This document shows, piece after piece, positions 8,209-59,410 of a stretch of DNA of 64,000 nucleotides. This DNA is from Candidatus Levybacteria bacterium RIFCSPHIGHO2_01_FULL_41_15. GTDB taxonomy: Bacteria; Patescibacteriota; Microgenomatia; Levybacterales; UBA12049. The DNA lies in the NCBI GenBank assembly GCA_001782165.1, contig MFNV01000009.1:122283-186282 (forward strand). Reading direction: 5' to 3'. How positions within the stretch are numbered: position 1 is the stretch's first letter; every line of letters begins with the position of its first letter. Below the pieces are notes generated by a model. That model was not told where the DNA came from and made no database searches. It was given only the letters and a program-made list of their open reading frames with translations. The position numbers were made by a program, and so were the translations under genes.

Positions 8209-8343
8209 CAGACCTGCGGGTTCTTAACCCTTTATCCCCCTTTTTTTCAACAGTTTTTCCACATTTTTAAACAGTCCCGTCTTGCTTTTTTCCACTTTTC
8301 CATATAGACTACTACAACTACAAATATTAATATAGTTTTAAAA
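8209..8343. promoter_or_regulatory. dnaA-dnaN spacer: candidate oriC segment
   Basis: Two DnaA-box-like 9-mers, TTTTCCACA at 8255-8263 and TTTTCCACT at 8288-8296. They are followed by an AT-rich stretch (catatagactactacaactacaaatattaatatagttttaaaa). A hairpin plus T-run after dnaA looks like a terminator. Confidence 0.4.
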
Positions 8344-9461: not shown

Positions 9462-9962
9462 TCAGTAATTTTCACAAAAACTTAAAGTTTTCCTGGGTGG
9501 GGCAAGATAGGGGTTTGGGACATATGGAGAGGTTACTTTAACTTCTAGTTGGCAAGCTTCCTCCCTTTTTACTCCAAGCTTTGTAATAAAAGCCATCTCC
9601 GCATTCAGTCTAGTCTGTGAGGAGGAGGTTGATATATTAATTATAAATTGACTAAATCTTGTTAAGTAAGCAATTTGGAAATCTCCTTCTTTGATAAAAA
9701 GCACGTCTCCTTCACTATTGGTTTGTATGGGGCTTTTTAGGAAATTATTTGTTTTGACACCTGAAATAATTATTTTATCTGATTGGGGGATTCTAGTTCT
9801 CTCCTCTATTTTTGTCGGAGTTGGAATCTCCCCCTCTTGTCTTTTGTGTTTTGAAGGAAAGAAGAGGGAGAGGAAAAAATAAATTAACCCTAGAGCAATT
9901 AGGGTTGAAAAAAGAATGATAGCAATTCTCTTCATAGACCTATTTAAAAACTTATACCACAC
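9462..9962 (-). CDS. small bitopic secreted/membrane protein, unknown (possible VirB8-like accessory)
   Basis: 166 aa with an N-terminal TM (IAIILFSTLIALGLIYFFLSLFF) and a ~120-aa ectodomain. It is adjacent to the T4SS-like hydrolase gene. Confidence 0.35.
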   Translation of the reverse strand: MWYKFLNRSMKRIAIILFSTLIALGLIYFFLSLFFPSKHKRQEGEIPTPTKIEERTRIPQSDKIIISGVKTNNFLKSPIQTNSEGDVLFIKEGDFQIAYLTRFSQFIINISTSSSQTRLNAEMAFITKLGVKREEACQLEVKVTSPYVPNPYLAPPRKTLSFCENY

Positions 9963-11752: not shown

Positions 11753-11768
11753 AAGTCAATAATGTAAA

Positions 11769-13784
11769 TTAAGTTTTATTAAAAACCGGAGGGGCTTGGG
11801 GCTGCGCAGCTTGCGGTGTAGGGGAGGGAGCTTCGGGGAGAGACTCAGGAGGTGGAGGTTGTTGGGATGGCTGGGAAGGAGCTTGCTCAACAGGATTTTC
11901 CGGAGGGGAAGCAGCTTCCGCCTGCTCCTGCGATTCTTTTTGCTGGATCAATTCCTGAGGGTTTGAGGTTATTATTGTGTGCTCAAAGGGTGCTGCAATA
12001 ACTTTTATCACAACATGACTTTGTCCTGCAAAAAACAAACCTTCTCCTACATCTGATGAAAGAAGAAGCTCTTTTTCTCCTTGTGAAAGGTAAAAAACTT
12101 TTGAGATAAGATCTATTTCTGTAGGAGACTGTTTAAGAAGCATCTGTATTGATGAATTTGATAAAACTGCATTTCCGTAGTCGGTCGATAAGAAATCCTG
12201 AACATCCTGAGTTGCGGTTGTTAAAGCAAGATAATATTTTCGAGCACGTTTTGCGATTCCATAAACAAAAGACGCTGAATCTTCATATTTCATTATATAC
12301 CAGGCCTCATCTAAGACAAGAAGTCTTTTTTTAAGGCTTTTTCTGATTCTTGTCCAGACAAAATCCAAAATAATGTGCATGGCAATGGGGCGAAGTTCAT
12401 CCTCCAAAGCCTTAATTGAAAAAACGGTGAATGGGTTTGTAATATCAAAATTAGACTGCTGATTGAAAATTCCGGAGAGGCTCCCCTTTATAAATTTTTC
12501 AAGCCTTAAGGCAAGTCCTTTTGCTGTCTGATCCTCCATACCAATTAGAACTTTATATAAGTCTTCCATCAAAGGAGGCTGATTTTTTTGAGTCGAAGGA
12601 TCTGCAGTTACCCCTTTTTGTCTATAGGTTTCAACAAGAGCGCGGTCCAAGATTGCATCCTCGCCTGCAGACAGCTCTCCCATGACTATCCGCAAAAGCC
12701 CATGAAGGGAGAGTATTTTAAGCCCCAGCTCATTTTCGCCTTCCTCATAAAGGCCCGAGAGGTCAAATGGATTTATCTTAATCGGATCGGATGGAGTAAA
12801 GGATACATGTTCTCCGCCCAGTGTTTTGGAAAGAGCTTCGTATTCCCCTTCAGGGTCTATTATTATAACTTCGGTCCCAAACATAAACTGTCTTATGGCC
12901 TCAAGTTTTATCAAGTATGACTTTCCTGCACCCGATTTGCCTAATACCACTTCATTTGCGTTTTCCAAAGAATATCTGTCAAAAACTATTAGTGATCCAT
13001 TCTGCTCATTTATTCCATACATGATTCCCTTATCTTGAGTAAGAGTTGCAGATGTGAAAGGGAAAGTAGAGGCAAGAGAAGTTGTATCCATGTTCCTTGC
13101 AATGTAAAGCTTGTCAACACTTTGTGGAAGGCAAGATTTGAATCCTTCTTCCATTTGAAGTGTGGCAGGTTTTGTTATAAGAAGAATAGAGGATAAGGTT
13201 GATGTGAGTTTTTTTGAGGCCACATCAAGATCCTGTATCGTTTCTGAAAAAAGTGTTATGTAAAGACCGAACTGGAAGAATCTTTCGACTCCCTTTGCCA
13301 GTTGTTCCTGAAGCGAAAGAGCATCTTCCAAAGCTGCCTGAACCTTGGGATCAACTATCTTTCCCTCCTCTGTCTGTGACGAGATTGTTGCTTCCATCTC
13401 GGCAATCTTTCTTCGGATATCAGAAAGCACGTCATTTGAGGAAGCAGGGTAGCAAAACATCGAAACATTCATTGAATGATCAAAATCAATAAGAGGAGAA
13501 AGCCAATTGGGCGAAACAAATCTTGGATAACCTACAACAAAAAAGGTCCTGTAATAAAAATCACCTACTCTTATAAAGTTGAAATCTACTTCAACCGAAG
13601 GTGGGGCAATAATATCAAGAAGGGAGGATGTCCCCTTTTCAAGAATTTTGATTCCCTTTGCTTCTATTGTTTTTGCACCCTGCCTGTCCATTTGTCCTGA
13701 GCTCAGGGTTGAAGGACCGGCAGGCAGATCCTGCAAAGGAGTTTGATTATTGGTTTTTTGTTTTTTGAAATTTAAGAATTTCAT
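11769..13784 (-). CDS. virB4: VirB4/TrbE/CagE-family type IV secretion ATPase
   Basis: 671 aa with Walker A VVLGKSGAGKSYLIK, Walker B LLVLDEAWYIM, and an upstream CagE_TrbE_VirB-like region (RVGDFYYRTFFVVGYP). The C-terminal tail is Pro/Gln-rich. Confidence 0.85.
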   Translation of the reverse strand: MKFLNFKKQKTNNQTPLQDLPAGPSTLSSGQMDRQGAKTIEAKGIKILEKGTSSLLDIIAPPSVEVDFNFIRVGDFYYRTFFVVGYPRFVSPNWLSPLIDFDHSMNVSMFCYPASSNDVLSDIRRKIAEMEATISSQTEEGKIVDPKVQAALEDALSLQEQLAKGVERFFQFGLYITLFSETIQDLDVASKKLTSTLSSILLITKPATLQMEEGFKSCLPQSVDKLYIARNMDTTSLASTFPFTSATLTQDKGIMYGINEQNGSLIVFDRYSLENANEVVLGKSGAGKSYLIKLEAIRQFMFGTEVIIIDPEGEYEALSKTLGGEHVSFTPSDPIKINPFDLSGLYEEGENELGLKILSLHGLLRIVMGELSAGEDAILDRALVETYRQKGVTADPSTQKNQPPLMEDLYKVLIGMEDQTAKGLALRLEKFIKGSLSGIFNQQSNFDITNPFTVFSIKALEDELRPIAMHIILDFVWTRIRKSLKKRLLVLDEAWYIMKYEDSASFVYGIAKRARKYYLALTTATQDVQDFLSTDYGNAVLSNSSIQMLLKQSPTEIDLISKVFYLSQGEKELLLSSDVGEGLFFAGQSHVVIKVIAAPFEHTIITSNPQELIQQKESQEQAEAASPPENPVEQAPSQPSQQPPPPESLPEAPSPTPQAAQPQAPPVFNKT

Positions 13785-14446
13785 ACCTGACTCCCCATTT
13801 TTATAATAGGGGTTTTAAGCTCATCGGTTATTTGATTAGTTTCGATGAGGGATCCGTTGAAGATCTCATAAAAAAGTTTGACCAGCTCTTCCTTCTGAAG
13901 AGTTTTTGCGCGAAGACCTAATCTTGCAAGCTGTGAGTGAACGGAGTCTCCCTTGGAATGAAGAGCTGCCTTTGCCTCTTCAAAAAAGGAGTCTTCGGAT
14001 ATTTGACCGGGCATAGCTTTTTTGGCTGCCCCAACCCCCTTTTCAAGATAGGAATATGGAATAACAATATAAAATTTTTTGTCAAGTACCGTATTTACTT
14101 TGACCAGCTCTCTTATAAAATCCCGGTAAAGCCTTATCTGGGAAGATAAAAGCTGATTTGTTGACCCCTGAGCCTGCTCTTCCAAAAGTTTTAAATAAGA
14201 GGAGATATCAAGCTTTTTGCTTCTTATAAATATCTGAATCGGGAAAGATAGGGAATTAAGAAGAGAAGCATAGGAAAAAACTTTTGTGTCCTGTTCTTCT
14301 TTTGAAAGAAGAGAGAAATTCGTGGCATTGACCTCAATTATAAAACAGGCATTTTTACCCGATAATATAACTATGTCCTCTTCGATTCCCTCAATTTCTA
14401 TAAATTTTTGCGTTGTTGCTCTCTTTTTTTGGGCAGTTTTAGTCAT
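13781..14446 (-). CDS. cytoplasmic T4SS-associated protein, unknown (resembles a VirB4 N-terminal domain)
   Basis: 221 aa with no TM. It is translationally coupled (4-nt overlaps) between the PrgI-like gene and virB4. The segment IEIEGIEEDIVILSGKNACFIIEVNATNFSLLSKEEQDTKVFSYASLLNSL resembles the N-terminal region of VirB4/TraC proteins. Confidence 0.35.
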   Translation of the reverse strand: MTKTAQKKRATTQKFIEIEGIEEDIVILSGKNACFIIEVNATNFSLLSKEEQDTKVFSYASLLNSLSFPIQIFIRSKKLDISSYLKLLEEQAQGSTNQLLSSQIRLYRDFIRELVKVNTVLDKKFYIVIPYSYLEKGVGAAKKAMPGQISEDSFFEEAKAALHSKGDSVHSQLARLGLRAKTLQKEELVKLFYEIFNGSLIETNQITDELKTPIIKMGSQV

Positions 14447-15654
14447 GATTTTTGAACGGGATTAAATAATTCTCTTCTAAGTTCTTCTCTTTTGTCAATT
14501 GAAATTATTTCAAGAGGCATTAAAACTTCACCTCTGGCTTCTATCTCAATAGTATCAAATTTATGTTCTCCCTTGGGATCTTCAAAAAATATAGTGTAAA
14601 CTCCGTTACCTAAGGGGGTTGCCGAAGCAAATTGACCTAAGACATTTGTTTTGAATGCTCTTACAGGATTTCCTTCCTCGTCTTTCACCTCAACAAGTAT
14701 ATTAGGAAGAGGATTATTTCTTGAGTCTTTTGCTATTCCCATAACCAAGTTTGGAACATCGGGAATAAAAGGGAGTCCTGCAGTTTTACTCAATTCTCTC
14801 GGAATTCTTCTTGCATGTTTTGTTTCAGGCTTGGGAGTTATAGTTGAGGGACTATAAATATTTTTTCCCTGCATCTTAAGTTTTTTTCTAAGCTCTATTA
14901 TTTGATTCTCCAAAATTTGTTTTTGTGAAGTCACCTCGCTTAAGACCTTTTCAATCTCAAGAATTTTTTGGTGGGCCATTTGGTATTGTTCTCCCGTCTC
15001 CTGTTTTTTTTCCAGATCCTTGGCTTCCTCAAGCTCTTTCTTGAGAACATCAGCCTTTTTGTCAAGCTCTTTTTCTTCCTCTTTTTTTTTGCCTTCGTCT
15101 GTTAAATTTACATTCTCTCTGATCTGATCTTCAAATATCTTTTCATAACCTCCCAAATTCTCCGATATGTCAGTTGGGGATCCTTTGCTCAAAGAAAGAA
15201 GAGAATTTAAAAAATTAAGCTCTTTTTCATCCAATTTATCTTTTGGTTTTTGGGGAAGATTTTTTAAAAACTCTTTAAGTTTTTGGGTGGAATCGGATGA
15301 AGTCATAAGCTTAGATACTGTTTGTACTTGACTTTCCTTGGGTGGCTTGGGGAACCACATATGACCACCTATTTTCTGATATATATACTGAGTTGGATTA
15401 AATAAAGCTTTTATGTAATTTGAAATCATAAGATCAAACGGCCGACCCTCAATAGGAACAAACGCCGCTCCCACCCCCAGGCCTACAAAAAGAAGAACGA
15501 GGGGGATTTTTATAAGGATAAAAATCGGGAGCGCAAAAGTTATCCAGCCTAGGACAACTCCTGTCGCAAGATAGGCAAATTGCTTAATGGTCATGTCCCC
15601 TATCAGCTTAAACTGAAAACCTGTAATATCTTGGGGAATAGGATGATTTTCCAT
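14443..15654 (-). CDS. PrgI/VirB3-like membrane protein fused to coiled-coil and C-terminal beta-sandwich domain
   Basis: 403 aa. N-terminal region (MTIKQFAYLATGVVLGWITFALP... then a second TM) resembles PrgI/VirB3-type small T4SS membrane components located directly upstream of VirB4. A K/E-rich coiled coil follows, and the C-terminus looks like a carboxypeptidase-regulatory-like fold. The true start is probably the Met at MTIKQ. Confidence 0.4.
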   Translation of the reverse strand: MENHPIPQDITGFQFKLIGDMTIKQFAYLATGVVLGWITFALPIFILIKIPLVLLFVGLGVGAAFVPIEGRPFDLMISNYIKALFNPTQYIYQKIGGHMWFPKPPKESQVQTVSKLMTSSDSTQKLKEFLKNLPQKPKDKLDEKELNFLNSLLSLSKGSPTDISENLGGYEKIFEDQIRENVNLTDEGKKKEEEKELDKKADVLKKELEEAKDLEKKQETGEQYQMAHQKILEIEKVLSEVTSQKQILENQIIELRKKLKMQGKNIYSPSTITPKPETKHARRIPRELSKTAGLPFIPDVPNLVMGIAKDSRNNPLPNILVEVKDEEGNPVRAFKTNVLGQFASATPLGNGVYTIFFEDPKGEHKFDTIEIEARGEVLMPLEIISIDKREELRRELFNPVQKS

Positions 15655-15964
15655 AATTTGAAAAGCAACTAGTTCCTAACCACTAGCGGCTAGTTGCTAT
15701 TTTTAACAGTGTATAACGTGAAAAAAATGCTTTCAAGACAGTCAAAATAGATCAAAAAAGAAAAAAAAGAGGCTAGTGTGAAAACTGAATAGTAAATCAC
15801 AAACTCTAAATAACAAATCCTAAATAATATTTAATTTCAAATGCTCAAAATCCAAAAAATTATTATATTCGAATTTTATACTTTGAATTTATCCTTCGAC
15901 GCTACTCAGGATGGTGAGCTTGTCGAACCATTTGGAGCTTGTAATTTTGGATTTAAGATTTAGT

Positions 15965-16342
15965 CTAATTGCAGTTTCCGAAGCCGAATTGTTTTATGCA
16001 GGAGACGCCAGTCAAAGCGCTTATAAAGTTTATTATTGCAAATGAAAGGAGAATTACAACAAGACCGATAATCGCATACGTAAGAGTTTCCCTTGCTTCT
16101 TTTACTTTATCCTCTGTTCCGCCTGACCTTATGTATTTGATTCCCGACCAGATGATGAAAAAAAGAGCTACTATTCCTCCTCCGACAAGCGCCCAGTTAA
16201 TAACATTCTGAAACACAGTCGGAATACACTGAAGAGTTGCGACGCTGTCTTTTACGCAATCTCCCCAGTCAACACCGGGAATGGTAATTCCGCCCCCTCC
16301 TCCGCCTGGAGGCGGAGGCAGTTTGGCAAGAAGTTTATCCAT
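15965..16342 (-). CDS. VirB2/TrbC-like T4SS pilin paralog 1
   Basis: 125 aa with two TM helices flanking IWSGIKYIRSGGTEDKVKEARETLTYAIIGL, a motif shared by all four paralogs. The N-terminus has a PPPPGGGGGG run. Confidence 0.6.
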   Translation of the reverse strand: MDKLLAKLPPPPGGGGGGITIPGVDWGDCVKDSVATLQCIPTVFQNVINWALVGGGIVALFFIIWSGIKYIRSGGTEDKVKEARETLTYAIIGLVVILLSFAIINFISALTGVSCIKQFGFGNCN

Positions 16343-16401
16343 AGTTTTAGATTAGCAAGAAAATTTTAAAAAAACAAGGAAAGATAGAGAAACTCTAAAT
16401 T

Positions 16402-16800
16402 TTACTGGAGCTTTAATGTGGGAAGAGTGAAGGTGGTTATGGTTTTACCGAGGAAGAATCCGACGACAAGATTCAAAATGAAGTATGCCAAAAAGACTAT
16501 TACAAGGCCGACGACTGCGGCAACAATCGTGTTTCTTGCAGCTTCGACATTAGTTTTATCTCCACCCGACAGAATCCACTTAATCCCTCCCCAAATTAAG
16601 AACCCTAATGCAATAAGAACCGCAAGTATGAAAAGAAGGGTAATAACATTTCCGACTACGTTCCCAAAATTACTTGATGTGAGTTTGCAAAGACCGGCGA
16701 AGTCGCCTGTGGGACAAGTGTCAACTGTATCAGCAAAAGCCAAAGCTGGGGAGAGAAGATAAGATGAAAATGCGGCTGTTGTAGCAATTAATTTTTTCAT
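16402..16800 (-). CDS. VirB2/TrbC-like T4SS pilin paralog 2 (with signal peptide)
   Basis: 132 aa with signal peptide MKKLIATTAAFSSYLLSPALAFA and the pilin core LIWGGIKWILSGGDKTNVEAARNTIVAAVVGL. Confidence 0.65.
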   Translation of the reverse strand: MKKLIATTAAFSSYLLSPALAFADTVDTCPTGDFAGLCKLTSSNFGNVVGNVITLLFILAVLIALGFLIWGGIKWILSGGDKTNVEAARNTIVAAVVGLVIVFLAYFILNLVVGFFLGKTITTFTLPTLKLQ

Positions 16801-16887
16801 CTTTAATTAAATGCTATATAGATTTTCACAGTTTGTCAAGCCCCGATTTAACAATTGAGCAATGGAACAATAGAGCAATTGGATTTT

Positions 16888-17196
16888 CTAGAAAATCCTT
16901 ATATTAAAGAATCCGAAAATAAAGTTTATCATAAAAAATGAAAAAAAAGCAATAATCAAACCTACAACAGAATAAGTCAGTCTAAGTCTTGCCTGTTCAA
17001 TTCTTTGTTTATCTCCGCCTGATGTTATCCATTGAATTCCTGCCTGAATCATATAAAAAAGAGCAAGAAAAATCGCCGCAAGAAGAAGCAAAGTAACTCC
17101 TCCCTGAATGATTTTTGAAATGTTCCCTCCTGTTGGAACCTCGCTAGGCGGCTCAATTTCCCGCCCTCCTATTGTAATAGCTATTTTATTTAACAT
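16888..17196 (-). CDS. VirB2/TrbC-like T4SS pilin paralog 3
   Basis: 102 aa with core MIQAGIQWITSGGDKQRIEQARLRLTYSVVGL. Confidence 0.6.
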   Translation of the reverse strand: MLNKIAITIGGREIEPPSEVPTGGNISKIIQGGVTLLLLAAIFLALFYMIQAGIQWITSGGDKQRIEQARLRLTYSVVGLIIAFFSFFMINFIFGFFNIRIF

Positions 17197-17250
17197 TTCT
17201 TATTTATCATTGATCATTAAAATCGTAAATTATAAATCATCAATCACGTT

Positions 17251-18180
17251 TTATTTTATAAAGTCTGGAATGCGTAAAATGTTAAATCCGATTACTTGAA
17301 GAATCACAAAGGAGAATATTATAAAAACAAGCCCTATTATCGCGGCAATTAGCTGATCCCGCGCTGCCTCCAAAGCTTCAGGTTTGCCCCGCGCTGCTAT
17401 AAGCTGATATCCCGAATAGATTATGAGAAGAAGTGCCAGTCCTCCTGAAAGAGAAAGAATAATACCAAAGATTGATTTTATAAGACCCGATGGATCTGTG
17501 CCAATATCTATTCCAAGGCCGGTTGTTACAGAAGTGCAGATTTTTATTTGTTTTTCATCTGTGGTTAAATTCCCTTCTTTATCAAATCCCTTGGAACAGG
17601 GTGGAGGAGGGGGGCTGGGATCAGGTTCTTCGGGTTTTGGCTTATCTGACTGAGGAGAGCAAATTGTATCATATTTCTCAATTTCCAACGTCCATGTCTG
17701 CAGAATTGTTTTTTTAAACTTATCCTTATCAAGGTTGGCTACTAACCCGCATGAATAAACCTTACACTCAGAATTAGCTGGATCGCAGAGTTGGGAATAA
17801 AGACATCTGTCATTATCAGTTAAACCAGAATCATCTCCGCATTTGCCATCAGAAGATATAGGAGGAAGACATCTATACACTCCGTCATTTTCCCTGCAGT
17901 TAAATTCCTGACATCCTGCATCTGTGCAGGGCTGGGTTGACAGGCAAAACGGCGAATTTTCATCGTTGCATTCTATAGGGGAGTTATAAGGATTCGTTTG
18001 GGGGGCAGGGCCTCCGCCTGTATCTCCTGTCTCTACTGCCAAAGAGGGCGGGGGTTTGAAAATTAAAATAAGGAGAATTATTACAACAACTCTTAGAATT
18101 TGTCCCACAATTTTATAGTAGACAAGTTGAGAATACTTTGCAAGAGCCGTCAAGCTATGCTTGGAATTTTCAATTTTCAA
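17251..18180 (-). CDS. Cys-rich ectodomain fused to C-terminal VirB2/TrbC-like pilin domain
   Basis: 309 aa. An N-terminal TM anchor is followed by a ~170-aa domain with ~22 Cys and a PPPPP linker. The C-terminal 70 aa are a pilin core (IIYSGYQLIAARGKPEALEAARDQLIAAIIGL). The start is a TTG embedded in a 7-nt x4 tandem repeat, so the 5' boundary is uncertain. Confidence 0.55.
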   Translation of the reverse strand: MKIENSKHSLTALAKYSQLVYYKIVGQILRVVVIILLILIFKPPPSLAVETGDTGGGPAPQTNPYNSPIECNDENSPFCLSTQPCTDAGCQEFNCRENDGVYRCLPPISSDGKCGDDSGLTDNDRCLYSQLCDPANSECKVYSCGLVANLDKDKFKKTILQTWTLEIEKYDTICSPQSDKPKPEEPDPSPPPPPCSKGFDKEGNLTTDEKQIKICTSVTTGLGIDIGTDPSGLIKSIFGIILSLSGGLALLLIIYSGYQLIAARGKPEALEAARDQLIAAIIGLVFIIFSFVILQVIGFNILRIPDFIK

Positions 18181-24773: not shown

Positions 24774-24861
24774 TGCGGAGGAGAGGAGATTCGAACTCCT
24801 GATACGGTTGCCCGTAAACCTGCTCTCCAAGCAAGCGCCATAGGCCACTAGGCGACTCCTC
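24774..24861 (-). tRNA. tRNA-Ser (anticodon GGA)
   Basis: Manual fold: acceptor GGAGGAG/CTCCTCC, anticodon loop TTGGAGA, long variable arm, T-loop TTCGAAT. CCA is not encoded. Confidence 0.8.
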
Positions 24862-24965
24862 CAAAATTAAATTCCAAAATTCGAAATCTTGAATCCTAAA
24901 TAAATCCTAAACCCAAAATTACAAATTTCAAACGATTGGACAATTTAGCAGTCCTTATTATATCA

Positions 24966-25382
24966 TCAGATCAATTTTCTTGCGTTTTGCCAAACTTGCC
25001 TGTCAGATTTATATGTAAGTCTTTCTTCAACTTTTTCAAGAGGGATCCATTCAACGTTCTGCATTTCCCAGTCATGCTCTTTGGTGTCTCCTGACCCGTG
25101 CTCCATAAGAAAATAATAAACAGTTTTTTTAATCTTTTGACCTTGAAAATTATACCAGTATGTAACAGGCTGTAAAGCTTTAATTATTTTCCCATTTATC
25201 CCTGTTTCTTCCTTAACTTCTCTTATTGCAGTTTCTTCTTTACTTTCTTTCTTTTTATGGTCACCGATTACCCCTTTAGGAAATACCCATCCGTGATGGC
25301 CTGAATGCTGAGCGACAAGAATAAATATCTTATCTTTAGATTTTTTATATACTATTCCACCGGCAGAGAACTCGAATTTCAT
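24966..25382 (-). CDS. NUDIX hydrolase
   Basis: 138 aa with the Nudix box GWVFPKGVIGDHKKKESKEETAIREVKEETG. Confidence 0.85.
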   Translation of the reverse strand: MKFEFSAGGIVYKKSKDKIFILVAQHSGHHGWVFPKGVIGDHKKKESKEETAIREVKEETGINGKIIKALQPVTYWYNFQGQKIKKTVYYFLMEHGSGDTKEHDWEMQNVEWIPLEKVEERLTYKSDRQVWQNARKLI

Positions 25383-25496
25383 TTCTTACCCCTCTGTTAA
25401 TATTGGTTTAGTCCACGCTTGTCTTCGCTGACGCTTCGCAAGCGAGCTCCGTCGCTTCGCCCCGTACCAGTCTGGTACAGGGCTTCGCTCGTCCGC

Positions 25497-25522
25497 TCCA
25501 CCTGCAGAAAATTCAAACTTCA
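25497..25522. repeat. direct repeat copy 1 (ccacctgcagaaaattcaaacttcat); on the minus strand it encodes MKFEFSAGG
   Basis: 25/26 identical to the copy at 26056-26081. Both re-encode the first 9 residues of the adjacent NUDIX gene with different synonymous codons. Confidence 0.6.
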
Positions 25523-25529
25523 TGATACA

Positions 25530-25763
25530 TTAGTCTTTCAATAATTTAATAAACTCATCTCTGCCCACCCGTAGATCTCTCTTTATTATTTTTGTTAATA
25601 ATCCGATACCGATCACTTGCGCAGGATGGATTGGAATAGTAGTTCTTCTTCCGTCAGGATGCATATAAATTGCGTGGCTTCCGCTTTGATCGCGAAAAGT
25701 AAATCCAAGTCTTAACACTACCTTAACTAATTCTCTTGCTTTGACTTGAGGAAGTTTTGGCAT
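25530..25763 (-). CDS. hicA: HicA mRNA interferase toxin
   Basis: 77 aa; ...GFTFRDQSGSHAIYMHPDGRRTTIPIHP... matches the HicA/YcfA family. Confidence 0.75.
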   Translation of the reverse strand: MPKLPQVKARELVKVVLRLGFTFRDQSGSHAIYMHPDGRRTTIPIHPAQVIGIGLLTKIIKRDLRVGRDEFIKLLKD

Positions 25764-26014
25764 TAGATAGATACTTCAAGCGAAGTCATACTTACGGGTT
25801 CAACTTTTGGAATATCCTGATGTTCTTTGCGAAGAACCTTTAAATGCAGTTTGATTGCGTCGCGAATATTAGTAATTGCCTGTTCAAGTGTTTTTCCTTG
25901 CGTATGACATCCTGCAAGATCTGGGCAGTCTGCCACAAAAAATCCATCCTCATCCTTTTCAATGATAACCGGAAATTTATAGGTAGTAGTTTTTATTTTT
26001 TGCATTTTTCCCAT
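25763..26014 (-). CDS. hicB: HicB antitoxin (UPF0150 family)
   Basis: 83 aa; KFPVIIEKDEDGFFVADCPDLAGCHTQGKTLEQAITNIRDAIKLHL. Its stop overlaps the hicA start. Confidence 0.7.
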   Translation of the reverse strand: MGKMQKIKTTTYKFPVIIEKDEDGFFVADCPDLAGCHTQGKTLEQAITNIRDAIKLHLKVLRKEHQDIPKVEPVSMTSLEVSI

Positions 26015-26055
26015 ATACTTATTATAACATTTTTAGTTCTTTCCTGCCGACAACT

Positions 26056-26081
26056 CCGCCTGCAGAAAATTCAAACTTCAT
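26056..26081. repeat. direct repeat copy 2 (ccgcctgcagaaaattcaaacttcat), abutting the 3' end of tRNA-Ser(CGA)
   Basis: Read directly; on the minus strand it opens a 19-codon mini-ORF MKFEFSAGGVVGRKELKML*. Confidence 0.6.
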
Positions 26082-26082
26082 G

Positions 26083-26166
26083 CGGAGGGTACAGGATTCG
26101 AACCTGTGAGGGATTACTCCCACGAGTTTTCGAAACTCGCGCCTTAAACCGCTCGGCCAACCCTCC
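26083..26166 (-). tRNA. tRNA-Ser (anticodon CGA)
   Basis: Acceptor GGAGGGT/ACCCTCC, anticodon loop TTCGAAA, long variable arm, T-loop TTCGAAT, discriminator G. Confidence 0.8.
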
Positions 26167-26181
26167 AATTTTATTAAATTG

Positions 26182-26255
26182 CACCCTCGAAAGGATTCGA
26201 ACCTTCGACCTCGACGTCCGCAACGTCGCGCTCTATCCAACTGAGCTACGAGGGC
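26182..26255 (-). tRNA. tRNA-Arg (anticodon GCG)
   Basis: Manual fold: acceptor GCCCTCG/CGAGGGT (G1-U72), D-arm GCTCAGTTGGATAGAGC, anticodon stem-loop CGACG-TTGCGGA-CGTCG, 5-nt variable loop, T-loop TTCGAAT. Confidence 0.6.
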
Positions 26256-26341
26256 ATCCTCTAACCGTCCCGCCAGAGGCGGGATGCTACTATCCGTTGA
26301 ACTACGGGCACAAAGTGGTTTTTATTCTATCTAATTTTAGA

Positions 26342-26953
26342 TTATGAAGCAACTTTTGTGTTCTCAAGAGGAAAATTTTTGGAAAGAAAATTTCCTGCAT
26401 TTTCCATAAAAGTAGGTTTTATCACCTCTCTATAGGGAAGATACGGTAGGAGAACAGATCTTACGTGCTCTACGTCAAGGTTGCCAAGCGGAACAGTCAA
26501 AACACCCGGAATAAAAGCATGCGTTCTCACATGAAGAACTTCTATTCCTTCCACCCTTTTAAAATAAAAATCATAAAGCTCCTGCCATAAAAAGAAATGA
26601 TCTTCAATTGTTATGCCCTCTGTTGAGATCCGATAATGAAAATTATGAGGGGGGACAATGGCAAGTGCAAAGGCAACAAAAACAAGAGACAGGACTACAA
26701 GCATCAAAAGATATTGGGAGAATAAAAATAAAATAACTTGGACAAGAAGCATTATAAGAAGGCTAGTTAGAAAGTATTGCTTAGTTCTTTTCTTGTACGG
26801 TCTTCCGGGAGCGGTCCAGGACAAAAGGGTTTTTATATGGGGATATTGCGTTTCCGCCTGAAGTTCTAAAGGCTCTTTGGGAAGGTCTGCCTTGCCGGCA
26901 GGCAGGTCTCTGGCTTCTTTGGGAAATAATTTTTCCTCTTTTTGGGCAGCCAT
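26342..26953 (-). CDS. membrane protein of unknown function
   Basis: 203 aa with two central TM helices and a ~100-aa C-terminal domain. Confidence 0.4.
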   Translation of the reverse strand: MAAQKEEKLFPKEARDLPAGKADLPKEPLELQAETQYPHIKTLLSWTAPGRPYKKRTKQYFLTSLLIMLLVQVILFLFSQYLLMLVVLSLVFVAFALAIVPPHNFHYRISTEGITIEDHFFLWQELYDFYFKRVEGIEVLHVRTHAFIPGVLTVPLGNLDVEHVRSVLLPYLPYREVIKPTFMENAGNFLSKNFPLENTKVAS

Positions 26954-27000
26954 AAGTTTAATTTATAGGATTAGGAGGAATTAGTCAATGGCGAATAGAA

Positions 27001-27327
27001 CTAGATTCTGGCAGCGTAATTGAAGGCGTAAAAGTATTTTTTAAAAGAGCTATCAGTGGAAAGATATTGATTGTCTAAATACCAGTCAACAAGAACCTCT
27101 CGCATACGGCATAGTTCTTTGAGCCGCATGCGGTTTTTTGGGTCTTTTAGAGTTAGATCAATTAGCTCCAATGCCCGCTCGAATGCCAATTTTTGATATT
27201 GTTTATTACCTTTATTCTTCCAGATTATAGTCCGCTCAACTTCACTACCTATATTAGCCATTTGTTCTACGAGCCTCATATTAAACCAGTGTTTTTTGGA
27301 TAAATTTTTATGATAGATAAGATTCAT
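27001..27327 (-). CDS. small hypothetical protein (downstream member of an overlapping two-gene module)
   Basis: 108 aa, predicted helical. Its start overlaps the upstream 113-aa ORF by 4 nt (ATGA). Confidence 0.35.
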   Translation of the reverse strand: MNLIYHKNLSKKHWFNMRLVEQMANIGSEVERTIIWKNKGNKQYQKLAFERALELIDLTLKDPKNRMRLKELCRMREVLVDWYLDNQYLSTDSSFKKYFYAFNYAARI

Positions 27328-27665
27328 CTTTGAACTAACTTATTTATTATTTGAATTATTTTTTTTTGAATTTTCGGATCATCAACACCACGAGAGTAAT
27401 TGTCTTGTGATGGCTTAAGATTGATCATTGAATCAAATTCGATAAAATCATCGCCCTTTTTTTCTGGATAGAGATTAATACCCCATAAATCTTCCTGCTT
27501 AGATCCACGCTGCAATAAATATTGCTCTTCGTCGGCATGCAGTTCGGCGTTGATCACCATTATTTCTTTTTTAACATCAATAACTGCCTTGACCAAAATA
27601 CCAAACATTCTTTTGGCCATTCTTTTAATTTCTAGAATACTGATTTTTTTTTCAACAACTTTCAT
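27324..27665 (-). CDS. small hypothetical protein (upstream member of an overlapping two-gene module)
   Basis: 113 aa, translationally coupled to the 108-aa ORF. Architecture is toxin-antitoxin-like, but no family was recognised. Confidence 0.35.
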   Translation of the reverse strand: MKVVEKKISILEIKRMAKRMFGILVKAVIDVKKEIMVINAELHADEEQYLLQRGSKQEDLWGINLYPEKKGDDFIEFDSMINLKPSQDNYSRGVDDPKIQKKIIQIINKLVQR

Positions 27666-27892
27666 AAAACCATTCTAACATGCCAAAGATATTGCTTCAA
27701 TGATTTGATCCCGGGGATCATGGCAGAGGAGTATTATTTTCTGTTGGAGTTTAAGATTTTTTCTAGTCGATTTCTTATGTTTACCAACTGGCGGTGGGAG
27801 TGAGATTCACTTCGGCTCCGCTCAGTGTAAACTTCTCATCCCATTTACACTTCGCCAATCTCAGAACATAAAGTCCTGAGCTTGTCGAAGGG

Positions 27893-27979
27893 CGGTGGGA
27901 GTGAGATTCGAACTCACGGCGGCATTGCTGCCACAATGGTTTTCAAGACCATCCGGATAAACCACTCCCGCATCCCACC
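27893..27979 (-). tRNA. tRNA-Ser (anticodon TGA)
   Basis: Acceptor GGTGGGA/TCCCACC, anticodon stem-loop ATGGT-CTTGAAA-ACCAT, long variable arm, T-loop TTCGAAT. Confidence 0.8.
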
Positions 27980-27984
27980 AAATG

Positions 27985-28072
27985 CGGAGAGGGTGGGATT
28001 CGAACCCACGCGAGCCTTGCGGCTCAGGGGATTAGCAATCCCCCGCAATGGACCAAACTATGCGACCTCTCC
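27985..28072 (-). tRNA. tRNA-Ser (anticodon GCT)
   Basis: Acceptor GGAGAGG/CCTCTCC, anticodon stem-loop GGGGA-TTGCTAA-TCCCC, long variable arm, T-loop TTCGAAT. Confidence 0.8.
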
Positions 28073-28152: not shown

Positions 28153-28848
28153 GTGGATTTCTTAGATATCTTTTTCCCAAAATATTGCGTAAATTGTAAA
28201 AAATTGGGCGATTATATTTGCTCTGACTGTTTTTCCTTTCTGTCTTTTGATGTGGAGAAGATTTGCGCTGTTTGTAACCTCCCTACTTTTAATAACCTGA
28301 CTCACCCAAGGTGCAGGAAAAGATATACGATTGACGGAGTTTTTTCAAGTATTTCCTATAAGGGGACAGCCAAAAAACTGATCTATAACTTCAAATATAA
28401 CCCCTATGTTTCGGATTTGGAAAAACTTTTGACGGACATTTTTTACGAAGGACTTATCCAAAAAGAGGAGTTTCACAAAGTTTTAAATTCTCAAAAAGTA
28501 GTTTTGGTGCCAATTCCGCTCTATCATTTAAGAGAAAGAAAAAGGGGATACAACCATGCTTCTATTTTAGCTGAGCAAATTTCAAAGAAATTAAATATCC
28601 CTGTTTGTAAAGTTTTAGAGCGCATAAAAAACACAAAAACACAAGTAAATTTAGACAAGGAGGAGAGGAAAAAAAATTTAAAAAATGCTTTTGTGATTGC
28701 CCCTGAGTTCAAAAATAAACTTAAAGGCAGAGAGGTTTTTCTAGTGGATGATGTATTTACCACTGGCTCAACCCTTTTGGAGGCGGCAAATACTTTAAAA
28801 AGAAGCGGAGTAAAAAAGGTCTTCGGTTTGACTTTAGCGAGGGGTTGA
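28153..28848 (+). CDS. comFC: ComF-family protein (double zinc-ribbon + phosphoribosyltransferase domain)
   Basis: 231 aa with an N-terminal CxxC...CxxC pair and C-terminal PRTase motif VFLVDDVFTTGSTL. Confidence 0.75.
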   Translation: MDFLDIFFPKYCVNCKKLGDYICSDCFSFLSFDVEKICAVCNLPTFNNLTHPRCRKRYTIDGVFSSISYKGTAKKLIYNFKYNPYVSDLEKLLTDIFYEGLIQKEEFHKVLNSQKVVLVPIPLYHLRERKRGYNHASILAEQISKKLNIPVCKVLERIKNTKTQVNLDKEERKKNLKNAFVIAPEFKNKLKGREVFLVDDVFTTGSTLLEAANTLKRSGVKKVFGLTLARG

Positions 28849-28866
28849 GATATAATACGCCTACTT

Positions 28867-29266
28867 GGGGATGCATTGCATCGACAGGAAAGCACATTAA
28901 AAACTGCAAGCCGACTTTGATGACAGTCGTCCCGCTGATAGTTTTCAGTCGGGATCCCGCCATCGGCGGTGATAAAACAGGGTCAAAAAATAAATGCTAA
29001 CGATCAAAAGTTAGCGTACGCATTTGCTTATAATTAAGTAATTTCGTACTGTTCATTAAATCTTTTCTCAACGAGATTTTATGGGCATAAATAAAGTTGA
29101 GATATAAATAAAAAGTTGGTTGGCTTTTTATCCGAAAATTTCAACCTTTGCTTTGTTTGTTTCCTTCCGATTTGGAGAAAATAAAGCGAGACTTAAAAAT
29201 CGGATAAGCTTGTAGATGTTTTTGGTTCGGCTTTCTTGGACTCGAGCTCACAGCTCGACATCTCCA
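28867..29266 (+). ncRNA. ssrA: tmRNA (transfer-messenger RNA)
   Basis: 5' GGGGAUG...AUCGACAGG tRNA-like start. 3' T-stem-loop TCGAG-CTCACAG-CTCGA, then CATCTCC-A, giving a G3-U70 wobble and A73 discriminator (tRNA-Ala identity). The internal AAAAAAUAAAU-GCU AAC GAU... block parallels E. coli AAAAAAUAGUC-GCA AAC GAC. Predicted tag reading frame 28996-29037 encodes (A)NDQKLAYAFAYN*. The element sits in a 490-bp ORF-free gap 1.0 kb from smpB. Confidence 0.65.
28931..28978 (+). repeat. 48-nt double-hairpin element, copy A (inside the tmRNA pseudoknot-1 region)
   Basis: gtcccgctgatagttttcagtcgggatcccgccatcggcggtgat has two stem-loops. A second copy lies at 53656-53703 with compensatory changes. 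Confidence 0.5.
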
Positions 29267-29341
29267 CACTACGCCCACGATTTCATAGGGGCTCCGCGTG
29301 GTAAACCACACTTTAATCTTTTGTTCCCATTCTTTTAATGC

Positions 29342-29626
29342 ATGCGAAGTGTGTGCCGCGAAACTTCAGTGAAGTGGTACAATTTATCTGTGTATTACGT
29401 TTACATTCTAAGACTCAACGACAGATCATATTATCATGGTTACTCTACGGATCTTAAAAAAAGACTAAAGTACCACAGACAAGGGTTAATTCCATCAACA
29501 AAGAACTTCCGTCCAGTAAAACTAATTTTTTATTCTGCTTTTGAATCAAAAACTAAAGCTCTTGAGTTTGAAAAATACTTAAAATCCAGCTCGGGTTTTG
29601 CTTTTCGAAACAAACATCTAATTTAA
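29342..29626 (+). CDS. GIY-YIG nuclease-domain protein (YhbQ/UPF0213-like)
   Basis: 94 aa; YYVYILRLNDRSYYHGYSTDLKKRLKYHRQG...TKNFRPVKLIFYSAFESKTKALEFEKYLKSSSG. Confidence 0.7.
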   Translation: MRSVCRETSVKWYNLSVYYVYILRLNDRSYYHGYSTDLKKRLKYHRQGLIPSTKNFRPVKLIFYSAFESKTKALEFEKYLKSSSGFAFRNKHLI

Positions 29627-29696
29627 ATATTTCATCATATCCACAAATTAACCTATAATAATTGCTTTTAACTTCTATTTTTGATACAATTCCGCA

Positions 29697-30251
29697 ATGG
29701 TAACAACTGAGCTCCAAAGAAAGTTGCATGCGAACGACTATCCTCATGCTGAAGAATTGAGGGGAAGATTGGTCCCAGTTTATCACATAACTGACAAGGA
29801 CGCCTTACCTTCCATAATGCAAACTGGATTATCTGCCTCTAGAGACAAGAGCAGAAGCGCAAAAATGTATAAGGAAGAGAGAAGAATAGTCGATGGGATA
29901 ATTGATAGGTTCGTTTTTAAACTTTGGCCGGGATTCTCAAGAACCGATGCTATTTACGCTGATCTTGAACCAGCAATCCGCATTGTGCCTTTTAGATGGC
30001 AAACAACAAATTTAGAAGTGATGGTTGACCCCAGTAAAGTTTTGGTTGTTGATCAATGGTATTATGATGAGACAAGAGGAGCTCTTCAACGGCATAAATT
30101 AAGGGAAGTAGTTTGGAATGCAAGGCAATACTGGAAGACAGCAGTAACGCTTCAAGAATATAGAGCTCGGGGTGGGGGATTATTTGCTATACCAGAAGTT
30201 ATTATACCCAACCCGGTTGGCATAGGAAGACTAAGAGTATTAAATGATTGA
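29697..30251 (+). CDS. hypothetical protein with ADP-ribosyltransferase-fold-like N-terminus (DarT/DUF4433-like or Tpt1-like), orphan
   Basis: 184 aa. VPVYHITDKDALPSIMQTGLSAS ... ERR ... IDRFVFKLWPGFSR resembles the YHITH..NL.SIL..G.L / ...VPFYFCP blocks of DarT-type ARTs. No DarG/macrodomain partner is nearby. This is a memory-based motif match only. Confidence 0.3.
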   Translation: MVTTELQRKLHANDYPHAEELRGRLVPVYHITDKDALPSIMQTGLSASRDKSRSAKMYKEERRIVDGIIDRFVFKLWPGFSRTDAIYADLEPAIRIVPFRWQTTNLEVMVDPSKVLVVDQWYYDETRGALQRHKLREVVWNARQYWKTAVTLQEYRARGGGLFAIPEVIIPNPVGIGRLRVLND

Positions 30252-30257
30252 AGAAGA

Positions 30258-30689
30258 TTAGGCTAACTCCCGCTCGACATCGCGCTCTATATCCTTCTTC
30301 TTCTTTGCTTCTTTTTTCTCAAATTCTTTCTTTCCTTTTCCCAAACCAAGCGCTACTTTTATAAAATTTTTGGTTGTGTAAATCGAAAGAGGGATAATGG
30401 ATAGATTGGAACCTTCAGTTCTGCCTTTTAGAGCTATTATCTCTTTTTTGTGAAGAAGTAGTTTTCTTGTTCTTCTTTCATCATACCCCTCCGGTCTTGC
30501 GTATTGATAGGGGAAAATTTTCGCATTTATTAAATACGCCTCGCTTCCAATTATTTTAACAAAACTTCCTTTTAAATCTGCCATCCCAAGTCTTACAGCT
30601 TTTACTTCTGCGCCTATCAGATTTATACCGGCCTCAACTTTTTCAAGAACTTGATAATCAAAAAATGCTTTTTTATTTACTATTTTCAT
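30258..30689 (-). CDS. smpB: SsrA-binding protein SmpB
   Basis: 143 aa; KKAFFDYQVLEKVEAGINLIGAEVKAVRLG... and a basic C-terminal tail. Confidence 0.9.
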   Translation of the reverse strand: MKIVNKKAFFDYQVLEKVEAGINLIGAEVKAVRLGMADLKGSFVKIIGSEAYLINAKIFPYQYARPEGYDERRTRKLLLHKKEIIALKGRTEGSNLSIIPLSIYTTKNFIKVALGLGKGKKEFEKKEAKKKKDIERDVERELA

Positions 30690-58864: not shown

Positions 58865-59410
58865 ATGAATAAAGATTTTGCTAATAATTTAGTTAATACC
58901 CCAGATTACGAGCATGAACCTTTCGATATGAGTGAACTAAAACCTTTAACTGTTTATCCTAATGCAATGAATTCTGGCGCAGCTATTTATCCAGCAACTA
59001 TAGTTGAAGGACCGATAGATAATTTCGGAACAGCAGTTGCTCAAGGCAATATGGGTCAAGATTTTTATCCTACTACGGTTAGCGGGACTACCTCTGTTTA
59101 TTCAAATTCTAATATTAATTCATGCACTTCGGTCTCGTTAAGGACTATTTCAGAGGGCTTTCATAAAGGAGATGGACATAATCTAGGAGAATTGTCGGGG
59201 TCAACCTTTCTAGCTAAGCCCACCACAGAGCAATATCAAACCAAAGATAAAAGCTGTACAAATAGTAAATCTAATTTTTATAAAATAGAAATTAAATATG
59301 ACCTTGCCAAAAAGCCTAACTACAAAAACGCAGATCAAATTGCAAAAGTGGATTTACACAAATTTCTTAGATACAGCCACGTGCAGTTTCTAGCTGAATA
59401 TTATTTATGA
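58865..59410 (+). CDS. hypothetical protein in the nrdR-nrdJ operon
   Basis: 181 aa, rich in Ser/Thr/Asn; its stop overlaps the nrdJ start. Confidence 0.4.
   Translation: MNKDFANNLVNTPDYEHEPFDMSELKPLTVYPNAMNSGAAIYPATIVEGPIDNFGTAVAQGNMGQDFYPTTVSGTTSVYSNSNINSCTSVSLRTISEGFHKGDGHNLGELSGSTFLAKPTTEQYQTKDKSCTNSKSNFYKIEIKYDLAKKPNYKNADQIAKVDLHKFLRYSHVQFLAEYYL

Follow-up and report, generated by a model that had tools for sequence, protein, structure and literature searches.

What do two small protein genes do between ssrA and smpB, and how did they come to be there? The original prediction, made from the DNA letters, regarded the pair as cargo-like genes inserted beside a tmRNA gene, a common kind of integration target, and saw in the second gene a resemblance to the DNA ADP-ribosyltransferase DarT, possibly as an orphan or inactivated toxin or as an ADP-ribosyltransferase with a different role. 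We analyzed this locus within its 64-kb surroundings (64,000 nucleotides, hereafter the window) and in related genomes, asking what the second gene encodes, whether it has a partner, and whether the interval looks like an island.

Gene content of the ssrA-smpB interval

Two genes do separate ssrA from smpB, and Rfam, Pfam and NCBIfam confirm both their coordinates and the gene content (Table 1). The tmRNA (RF00023) and SmpB (PF01668, TIGR00086) are both full length and score above curated thresholds; for smpB, the NCBIfam models reach equivalog level (NF003843, 157 bits; TIGR00086, 149.6 bits against a cut-off of 119.1). Read from the sequence, the tmRNA acceptor stem GGGGAUG/CAUCUCC is unbroken and the CCA is not encoded; ARAGORN made no call for this tmRNA. 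The smpB gene converges on the ADP-ribosyltransferase-fold (ART) gene, with 6 nt between their stop codons. The order ssrA - GIY-YIG - ART - smpB recurs in three Levybacteria/Patescibacteria lineages, with 63-95% identity among their ART proteins: the window with locus L001; L009-L011 with L017 and L018; and L003. Genome and metagenome scans for related loci by close-homologue alignment added no lineages to these.

Table 1. Features of the ssrA-smpB interval and its edges, in window coordinates.
Feature	Position	Strand	Evidence or remark
Promoter-like site TTGACT-17-TATAAT, just 5' of the tmRNA start	28828..28856	+	Consensus scan, 11/12 matches; pattern match alone
tmRNA gene (ssrA), full length	28867-29269	+	Rfam RF00023, 113.4 bits against a cut-off of 47, model positions 1-374
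Segment without detectable DNA similarity to sister lineage L009	29268..29640	.	blastn: matches stop at 29267 and restart at 29641
94-aa stand-alone GIY-YIG protein, UPF0213/YhbQ type	29342-29626	+	Pfam PF01541, 57.9 bits, E 1.3e-15
Tract recently exchanged between lineages	29641..30390	.	88-99% nucleotide identity to L009; flanks about 72% and 77-81%
Candidate ART promoter TTGCTT, 17 nt, TG-n-TACAAT (extended -10)	29662..29690	+	Sequence read; inferred, not a mapped start
184-aa ART-fold protein (ORF184), DarT/BC2332-like family	29697-30251	+	Predicted active site H30, R82, Y87, E167
102-bp gene-conversion patch	29772..29873	+	Holds all 12 differences from the otherwise identical 12.5-kb L001
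smpB	30258-30689	-	Pfam PF01668, 155.5 bits against a cut-off of 27, E 1e-45

The first of the two genes was predicted to encode a GIY-YIG nuclease, and it does belong to that family: its Pfam match lies well above the cut-off of 22.6 bits and covers profile positions 2-73 of 78. The protein aligns over most of its length with the UPF0213 structures BH0048 (PDB 1zg2, E 7e-9) and EF2693 (1ywl, E 4.6e-6), from which it differs in nothing of note, and is an ordinary member of the UPF0213/YhbQ group.

ORF184 family and predicted active site

An exhaustive HMMER search with ORF184 returned 120 cluster representatives at E <= 1e-3, of which 19 reach E <= 1e-10, so the gene is not a chance reading frame. 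A word-indexed protein search with a 54-sequence profile added just three further proteins. Neither Pfam nor NCBIfam has a model for this family, whose members are therefore annotated only as "hypothetical protein". Almost no member has a signal peptide or transmembrane segment.

The AlphaFold2 model of ORF184 (pLDDT 87, pTM 0.81) needed the alignment of 54 diverse relatives from the HMMER search; with four close homologues only, the pLDDT was 34. Its elements follow the order beta1-alpha-alpha-beta2-beta3-beta4-helical insert-beta5-beta6, which fits the ART fold, with a His on beta1 (H30) and the predicted catalytic Glu (E167) on beta5. E167 is invariant in the 54-sequence alignment. R82 is kept in 53 of the 54 relatives, position 87 is Tyr or Phe in equally many, and H30 is present in 38 and replaced in 16. 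Beyond these positions, the family shares the elements GFSR82..(I/V)(Y/F)87A, LExxVDP, YW145-146 and PE167V(L/I)IP. The predicted catalytic residues are the most conserved positions of the family, and for this reason ORF184 does not look like the inactivated toxin that had been considered.

We put a probability of about 60% on the following reading: ORF184 is a cytoplasmic, stand-alone, catalytically competent NAD+-dependent mono-ADP-ribosyltransferase, part of the H-Y-E (PARP/DarT/Tpt1-like) ART superfamily, which is neither a DarT nor the toxin of a toxin-antitoxin pair, is expressed from its own promoter and resides in the ssrA-smpB interval. Included in the same estimate is that the family is previously undescribed and, so far, seen mainly in Patescibacteria. 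Catalysis would proceed as follows. H30 on beta1 (VYHxT), together with the next helix (L37..I40..G44L45), would bind the ADP-ribose part of NAD+, and the beta2 aromatic at position 87 would stack on the nicotinamide. E167 at the start of beta5, aided by R82, may then activate NAD+ for transfer. The conserved helical insert (residues 120-160, with YW145-146, L152 and Y155), which would occupy the site of the ARTT loop of other ARTs, is the putative binding surface for the acceptor.

Relation to DarT and other ADP-ribosyltransferases

The closest known system is DarT (DarT1/DarT2; PF14487, formerly DUF4433), the toxin of DarTG and DarT-NADAR that ADP-ribosylates single-stranded DNA bases. DarT enzymes are the closest characterized structures: the top ten Foldseek matches of the ORF184 model are DarT and Tpt1, and searches of the viral BFVD library gave only weak matches to uncharacterized jumbo-phage proteins. 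Both proteins carry the beta1-alpha1 motif (Y/F)H(I/F)T..(N)L.SI...GL and a Glu that opens beta5 and leads into a hydrophobic strand (PEVLIP in ORF184, QAEVLV in DarT); the beta2 aromatic of ORF184 resembles Y71 of DarT2, and the size is similar at ~180-210 aa. The catalytic Glu for which the original prediction called has its candidate in E167, which pairs with the Glu of the DarT QAE(V/I)L strand in the extended and global modes of hhalign.

The sequence links to known ARTs are nonetheless weak and confined to ~30 N-terminal residues and the Glu-bearing strand. In its default mode, hhalign aligned only 29 N-terminal columns with DarT1-like domains, which we had taken from plasmids, at 45% probability; the family HMM matches one plasmid DarT protein with 20.9 bits. 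Conversely, ORF184 misses every DarT model: it scores 13.0 bits against a Pfam threshold of 22.5 (E 0.087) and 12.2 bits against an NCBIfam threshold of 150 (E 0.11), the PADLOC match (E 0.011) is weak and the only one that PADLOC gave, and all of them cover residues 27-54 only. The proposed likeness therefore stops short of membership in DarT. As for the N-terminal pattern on which the likeness had been based, YHIT..LPSI..GL holds, being the sole part recognized by sequence models, whereas FVFKLWP (residues 72-78) lacks conservation across the family.

The central 100 residues of ORF184 cannot be aligned with DarT, and its helical insert with the YW motif is unlike that of the toxin. The segment around R82 does not align reliably either. 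It is in the middle of the protein that DarT holds a Met, its essential Arg (R51 in DarT2, R52 in DarT1) and the residue that coordinates the base (H119 or N104) (PMC9967889, PMC11543638; these papers are also our source for the roles of the DarT residues).

Three other relationships were considered. First, the best Pfam match of ORF184 is DUF7002 (PF22531; residues 28-65, 16 bits against a cut-off of 27, E 0.009), which 3 of the 54 family members match at E <= 0.01. A DarT1 fragment has precomputed matches to both DarT and DUF7002, so DUF7002 has the same N-terminal motif; a literature search on it found nothing. Second, BC2332 (PDB 2aua, SCOP d.166.1.6) is 16% identical to ORF184 in a structural alignment, is not detected by the family profile at the sequence level, and adds no mechanism. 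Third, Tpt1/KptA (PF01885) is the best PDB match of the family profile (KptA, E 0.002; DarT1, E 0.018), although the Pfam scan of ORF184 gave no match to it and only 71-73 residues superpose. Tpt1/KptA has an N-terminal winged-helix, RNA-binding lobe where ORF184 has ~25 residues before beta1, and an H-H-h motif that lacks a catalytic Glu (PMC9967889), in contrast to the invariant E167.

A gene without a partner

As the original prediction had it, no DarG macrodomain gene adjoins ORF184, whose neighbors are the GIY-YIG gene and smpB, and Pfam scans of the larger ORFs of the 64-kb window revealed no macro, NADAR or ARH domain. Beside the relatives that we examined, there is likewise no reversal enzyme (DarG macrodomain, NADAR or ARH). 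Distant relatives have unrelated neighbors, none of which recurs, and the family as a whole has no conserved partner gene; the locus thus lacks the conserved same-operon partner of a type II toxin-antitoxin system.

We considered the GIY-YIG gene as an antitoxin or functional partner and rejected it, since it has had a different history from the ART gene, is apparently transcribed separately and is missing beside distant relatives. No functional link between the two genes is evident. The window's GIY-YIG protein shares only 40-43% identity with its positional counterparts in L009 and L003 (80% between those two), and its gene tree disagrees with that of smpB. The segment without detectable DNA similarity to L009 (Table 1) holds this GIY-YIG cassette, which was replaced or strongly diverged; the limits of the segment are the tmRNA 3' end and the region upstream of the ART gene.

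The ART gene is probably transcribed alone. Its candidate promoter is kept in L009 and L003 in the alignment and stops 6 nt short of the ATG; the mRNA would accordingly have no leader or almost none, a further difference from DarT. In L003, a GC-rich hairpin and a T-run separate the GIY-YIG gene from the promoter of the ART gene, for which the scan gave TTGAAT-17-TATAAT with TG, again 6 nt before the ATG.

ORF184 could still be an orphan DarT, a true DNA-base ADP-ribosylating toxin whose antitoxin, a DarG macrodomain or NADAR, lies elsewhere or was lost. We regard this as unlikely, even though the beta1 motif, the aligned Glu and the basic character of ORF184 (pI 9.5) speak for it. Against it stand the failure of the Pfam, NCBIfam and PADLOC models, the unalignable middle of the protein and the lack of a reversal enzyme in the window and beside the relatives examined; moreover, all five DarT1-like plasmid loci with intact flanks that we retrieved have a gene directly 3' of DarT. 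We instead place ORF184 in a new family of ARTs; it is probably an active enzyme and no DarTG-type toxin.

Recombination and the origin of the interval

The ssrA-smpB locus is a recombination hot spot. Between the window and L009, the ART gene has a dS of 0.084, compared with 1.08 for its neighbor smpB, which shows a recent exchange of the ART allele across lineages, within the tract given in Table 1. On a smaller scale, the 12 differences from L001 all fall into one patch that matches the L009-type allele and is therefore ascribed to gene conversion. The 12 population alleles of the ART gene are strictly two-state mosaics. A diversity-generating retroelement or hypermutation was rejected as the source of the patch: the window contains no template copy, the alleles have two states, and the patch is of L009 type. 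Close alleles of the ART gene give omega values of 0.34-0.55 (and 1.4 in the smallest of the comparisons), which indicates weaker constraint than on smpB. As a small case, the locus cleanly illustrates gene-specific exchange among co-occurring CPR populations.

Could the two genes then be the cargo of a degraded mobile element integrated at the ssrA 3' end, as first proposed? Several observations are in keeping with an island. The stretch that runs from the tmRNA 3' end up to 29640 shows no DNA similarity to the sister lineage, the GIY-YIG gene departs from the smpB tree, the ART allele is a recent exchange, and other family members lie just 3' of tRNA genes. L012 has two additional copies of the tRNA-His 3' end, both located between that tRNA and the ART gene, and in L015 a tRNA-Arg stops 8 nt before the ART start codon. 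Overall, a same-strand tRNA or tmRNA gene lies <=1 kb from the ART gene in four of six independent long contexts (a tRNA in three of the five besides the window), a count that is small (n=6) and was defined post hoc. At the locus itself, however, there is no integrase or recombinase between 29270 and 30257, the tmRNA 3' end is present once in the window with no att repeat, and the GC content is unremarkable, with no break in composition. In all related lineages that we found, the GIY-YIG and ART genes sit at this same place, and no relatives turned up among phages and plasmids (tblastn) or in three scans of viral contigs. Since integrase and att repeat are lacking and three lineages have the same order, an island at ssrA is not supported, and we consider it quite improbable. 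The ART gene is more plausibly a resident of the interval whose alleles would have been swapped between co-occurring lineages by homologous recombination.

Possible acceptors and roles

Our best guess at the acceptor, going by the identity of the nearest relatives only, would be nucleic acid, modified at a DNA base or at an RNA end. The charge of the family does not favor such an acceptor, because most members are acidic (37 of 54, pI < 6.2); the Levybacteria proteins are basic (pI 9.5).

The position beside ssrA and the tRNA genes in three of the five other contexts leave room for an origin at an integration hot spot or for a function related to RNA. An ART directed at RNA, modifying tmRNA, tRNA or an RNA end by Tpt1-like or RhsP2-like chemistry, would explain the ssrA-smpB position, which is conserved in three lineages, and would suit both the tRNA-Arg of L015 and the rank of KptA in the profile search. 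This is a long shot. No relative at <= 44% identity is linked to ssrA or smpB, the ART gene has its own candidate promoter, and the protein lacks the N-terminal domain of Tpt1 and has the catalytic Glu that Tpt1 does not; integration hot spots explain the post hoc tRNA proximity equally well.

A broader version, to which we give similarly slim odds, is that these proteins form a new class of partner-less ARTs of Patescibacteria, related to DarT and with a biology tied to tRNA-like genes. Its members might ADP-ribosylate tmRNA, tRNA or another ribosome-rescue component, or might be minimal cargo that moves without an integrase between sites adjacent to tRNA or tmRNA genes. Either version would explain the four tRNA- or tmRNA-near contexts and the allele sweep between Levybacteria lineages.

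The rifamycin-inactivating enzyme Arr is a small stand-alone ART of the H-Y type. ORF184 might similarly detoxify an antibiotic or metabolite by ADP-ribosylating a small molecule, an idea that accords with a small, cytoplasmic, partner-less protein, with the absence of a conserved genomic context in the family, and with a recent spread of alleles between co-occurring lineages as seen with resistance genes; we give it little credence. Least probable, and very unlikely, is an abortive-infection effector that degrades NAD+ (an NADase or RES-like NAD+ phosphorylase) and is no transferase, given that DarT and BC2332 are matched far better than RES proteins, that family members have no conserved Xre-type antitoxin beside them, and that PADLOC offers nothing but the weak DarT match.

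[quoted passage not shown] To our knowledge, the DarT-type enzymes described so far are toxins paired with a reversing enzyme. If the preferred reading of ORF184 as a stand-alone, active ART is correct, a partner-less DarT-related family with intact predicted catalytic residues, in the reduced genomes of Patescibacteria, would depart from them; an active enzyme of this kind would have to lack toxicity, act on a target that is foreign or highly specific, or be kept in check by some novel means. In practical terms the yield is small: a signature that defines the family, a structural model of good quality and obvious residues to mutate (H30, R82, Y87 and E167).

The ORF184 locus

The reading to which we commit is that ORF184, the 184-aa protein encoded beside smpB in this Candidatus Levybacteria (Patescibacteria) genome, is predicted to be a stand-alone, active mono-ADP-ribosyltransferase in a new family of the DarT/BC2332 type (BC2332 being the protein of structure 2aua). 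The coordinates and gene calls of the original prediction proved correct in ORF, Pfam and Rfam searches. OGH21425.1 and OGH34682.1 are the identical 184-aa protein, annotated "hypothetical protein" in Levybacteria metagenome-assembled genomes. The adjacent GIY-YIG gene encodes an unremarkable protein of the UPF0213 type.

Features of the window between comF and smpB
Feature	Coordinates	Strand	Remark
ComF-like phosphoribosyltransferase	28153-28848	+	
Promoter-like site	28828-28856	+	sequence pattern
tmRNA gene (ssrA), full length	28867-29269	+	Rfam 113 bits
GIY-YIG ORF, 94 aa	29342-29626	+	Pfam 1.3e-15; UPF0213 structures 1zg2, 1ywl
ORF184, 184 aa	29697-30251	+	
smpB, convergent with ORF184	30258-30689	-	6 nt between the two stop codons

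A TTG...-17-TGnTA(C/T)AAT element, conserved in the window and in the related loci L009 and L003, ends 6 nt before the ATG of ORF184, which thus appears to have its own predicted promoter. This spacing implies a leaderless mRNA, in agreement with the absence of a Shine-Dalgarno sequence. The GIY-YIG gene and ORF184 look like separate transcription units because in L003 a GC-rich hairpin and then a T-run follow GIY-YIG. ARAGORN reports no tmRNA in the window or in L009 and seems to miss these Levybacteria tmRNAs, which Rfam detects at full length, and the ComF-like protein matches the PADLOC models PsyrT (9.8e-17) and ShosT (3.6e-12), probably only through the common PRTase domain.

An undescribed family with an ART fold

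ORF184 is a real gene of an undescribed family. A word-indexed search returned only three relatives (95%, 63% and 44% identity); an HMMER profile search run exhaustively against 1.84 billion cluster representatives returned 120 at E <= 1e-3, 19 of them at E <= 1e-10. Every relative with a source name comes from Patescibacteria, and none was found in phage records, plasmid records or IMG/VR viral contigs. No family member reaches a Pfam cut-off, the weak matches being to DUF7002 (three members) and Tpt1 (one). The majority are stand-alone proteins of 165-235 aa with neither signal peptide nor membrane segment. The ART domain is also the C-terminal module of three very large proteins, P0009 (3794 aa), P0010 (1497 aa) and P0011 (1813 aa), and lies mid-protein (residues 704-814) in P0095 (1339 aa, with a signal peptide). 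P0009 has a polymorphic-toxin layout, with Peptidase_C25 and CARDB domains as well as a signal peptide. Some family members may therefore be exported effectors.

The ART fold of ORF184 is well supported. AlphaFold2 gave a pLDDT of 34 from a 4-sequence alignment, and a pLDDT of 87 with a pTM of 0.81 from 54 diverse relatives. Nearly all of the best 60 structure matches of the model are ART-fold proteins; Rhs ART toxins, the pertussis/cholera group, PARPs and diphtheria toxin rank below the closest of them. A Foldseek search put DarT and Tpt1 at the top, at weak E-values of about 0.04. BC2332, which the model resembles, belongs to the ADP-ribosylation superfamily (SCOP d.166.1.6; PMC3000352), and its function is not known (PMC3024214).

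All 54 aligned sequences have E167; 53 have R82, and 53 carry Y or F at position 87. G44, Y145, W146, V117 and P112 are each kept in at least 50 of the 54, and H30 in 38. Going by the order of secondary-structure elements in the model, H30 would lie on beta1, Y87 on beta2, and E167 where beta5 begins, which suggests an H-Y-E arrangement, and a conserved helical insert (residues 120-160) would occupy the position of the ARTT loop. ORF184 is likely to be catalytically competent, since no positions in the family are more conserved than its predicted catalytic residues. The same conservation speaks against the proposal that ORF184 is an inactivated toxin: it is not a decayed gene.

Relation to DarT and its relatives

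ORF184 is a superfamily-level relative of DarT and not a DarT. Three observations uphold the likeness to DarT that had been proposed: the ART fold, the N-terminal motif and the alignment of the catalytic Glu. Against the PDB, the family profile matched KptA (Tpt1) at E 0.002 and DarT1 at E 0.018, in both cases through the beta1-alpha1 motif. With DarT1-like domains, aligned from five plasmid DarT genes, default hhalign paired 29 N-terminal columns only (45% probability, E 2e-4). Extended and global hhalign paired PE167V(L/I)IP..I with DarT QAE(V/I)LV..I at high per-column confidence, so that E167, the candidate in all 54 sequences, falls on the DarT catalytic Glu (E152 in DarT1, E160 in DarT2; PMC11543638). 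What did not stand is membership: ORF184 misses all DarT HMM cut-offs (Pfam, 13.0 versus 22.5 bits; NCBIfam, 12.2 versus 150 bits; PADLOC, E 0.011), and the two families do not align in the middle region, where the essential DarT residues R51/R52, a Met, and H119 or N104 lie (PMC9967889, PMC11543638). R82, a possible counterpart of the DarT Arg, falls in this unaligned part of ORF184. ORF184 also falls below the DUF7002 model (16 versus 27 bits). Since a DarT1 fragment has precomputed matches to DarT and DUF7002 alike, the DUF7002 match of ORF184 reflects the same common N-terminal motif.

As acceptor, nucleic acid is our best guess at roughly one chance in three, made solely because of the identity of the nearest relatives; it is disfavoured because family members are mostly acidic.

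Gene partners

The lack of an adjacent DarG macrodomain was borne out. ORF184 is flanked by GIY-YIG and smpB, and no macrodomain, NADAR or ARH domain was found in the precomputed Pfam tables for 0-24 kb and 23.7-36.2 kb of the window, or among the ORFs of 130 aa or more that were scanned between 22.9 and 64 kb. A NUDIX hydrolase gene (24966-25382) lies about 4 kb from ORF184, where a HicA/HicB toxin-antitoxin pair (25530-26014) adjoins a tRNA cluster (24775-28072). In the contexts examined, the genes next to distant relatives are unrelated, and no partner recurs. By contrast, in each of the five DarT1-like plasmid loci whose flanks were intact a gene stands directly 3' of DarT, encoding about 228 aa in four cases and 101 aa in one; a sixth locus has an IS3 transposase there. 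ORF184, whose family shows no conserved partner in the contexts examined, is not read as an orphan DarTG toxin. It adds to a large, well-known superfamily a variant that is unusual in having no partner and whose locus shows clear signs of recombination.

The context of one family member, P0007, is an odd operon in L014 (1-9921). Its co-directional neighbours encode five paralogous proteins with PEP-utilizer (PF00391) domains, a low-molecular-weight phosphatase-like protein and a histidine phosphatase, and a TrmB regulator adjoins.

A probable resident gene with local recombination

The proposal that the two genes are cargo inserted at the tmRNA site is unsupported, because the ssrA-smpB interval lacks an integrase, the tmRNA 3' end is not repeated in the window, GC content at the locus is ordinary, and the order ssrA, GIY-YIG, ART, smpB is common to three lineages. 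One is the window together with L001 and L002, which are nearly identical to it; another is L009-L011, L017 and L018, where ComF is 60% and a 578-aa protein 57% identical to the window counterparts; the last is the Patescibacteria genome bin L003, with an ART protein 63% identical to that of the window. Separately, a block upstream of comF in L009 (148-3588), L010 and L011, where the window's genes differ, is likely an integrated element: it holds an HTH_36 protein, several genes that match no family and a large serine recombinase, and ends beside a tRNA-Ser.

Protein identity (%) between the three lineages
Protein	Window-L009	Window-L003	L009-L003
SmpB	87	83	79
ART	90	63	63
GIY-YIG	40	43	80

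Between the window and L009, DNA identity is 72% over the comF-tmRNA segment, similarity is not detectable across GIY-YIG (29268-29640), and identity is 89-99% from 29641 through ORF184, falling to about 77% within smpB. The dS is 0.084 for ORF184 versus 1.08 for smpB, and dN/dS (omega) 0.55 versus 0.07. Of the three GIY-YIG copies (window 29268-29640, L009 5573-5944, L003 29-316) the window's is the odd one out, and the likeness of the other two contradicts the smpB tree; the window's cassette was either replaced or subject to very rapid divergence.

Within the window's own lineage, comparison with L001, an 87-kb contig, shows 12 differences in 12,555 bp, all inside 102 bp of the ART gene (29772-29873). 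The 12 substitutions, with nine amino-acid changes and one synonymous, match the L009-type allele, and each of the 12 alleles in the cluster at 90% identity is a two-state mosaic of the two parental types. The patch is gene conversion from an L009-type allele among co-occurring populations. Hypermutation was rejected, given the two-state mosaics and the lack of a template repeat in the window.

Proximity to tRNA genes

A same-strand tRNA or tmRNA lies less than 1 kb from the ART gene in four of six independent long contexts: the tmRNA about 430 nt upstream in the window and L009, tRNA-Arg ending 8 nt before the start codon in L015 (4920-5001), tRNA-His 945 nt upstream in L012 (3984-5001), and, in L019 (9494-9702), tRNA-Pro 130 nt downstream of the gene for the 1497-aa protein, whose ART domain is C-terminal. 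L008 and L014 have no tRNA near the ART gene. With an assumed density of about 46 tRNA genes in each megabase, a rough, after-the-fact estimate puts the chance probability at 1e-5 to 3e-3; in this small sample (n=6) the proximity may reflect integration hot spots or an RNA-related function.

L012 (4041-4388) also carries three tandem copies of the tRNA-His 3' end (ATCCCGTCAGTCAC...). One belongs to the tRNA gene itself; the other two, at about 4228 and about 4353, are partial. An OmdA-domain gene and the ART gene follow shortly downstream, and the copies resemble att-site remnants left by repeated integration. Elsewhere in the window, a type IV secretion-like cluster (about 9944-18180; L020 5677-13841) with PrgI, TraC-like, VirB4/TraG-type ATPase and four T4SS_pilin genes adjoins dnaA-dnaN (6862-9456), and an AdoCbl-II riboswitch (61961-62041, 55.5 bits) sits in a 29-nt-wider gap between ribonucleotide reductase (59407-61959) and cobalamin adenosyltransferase (61989-62681).
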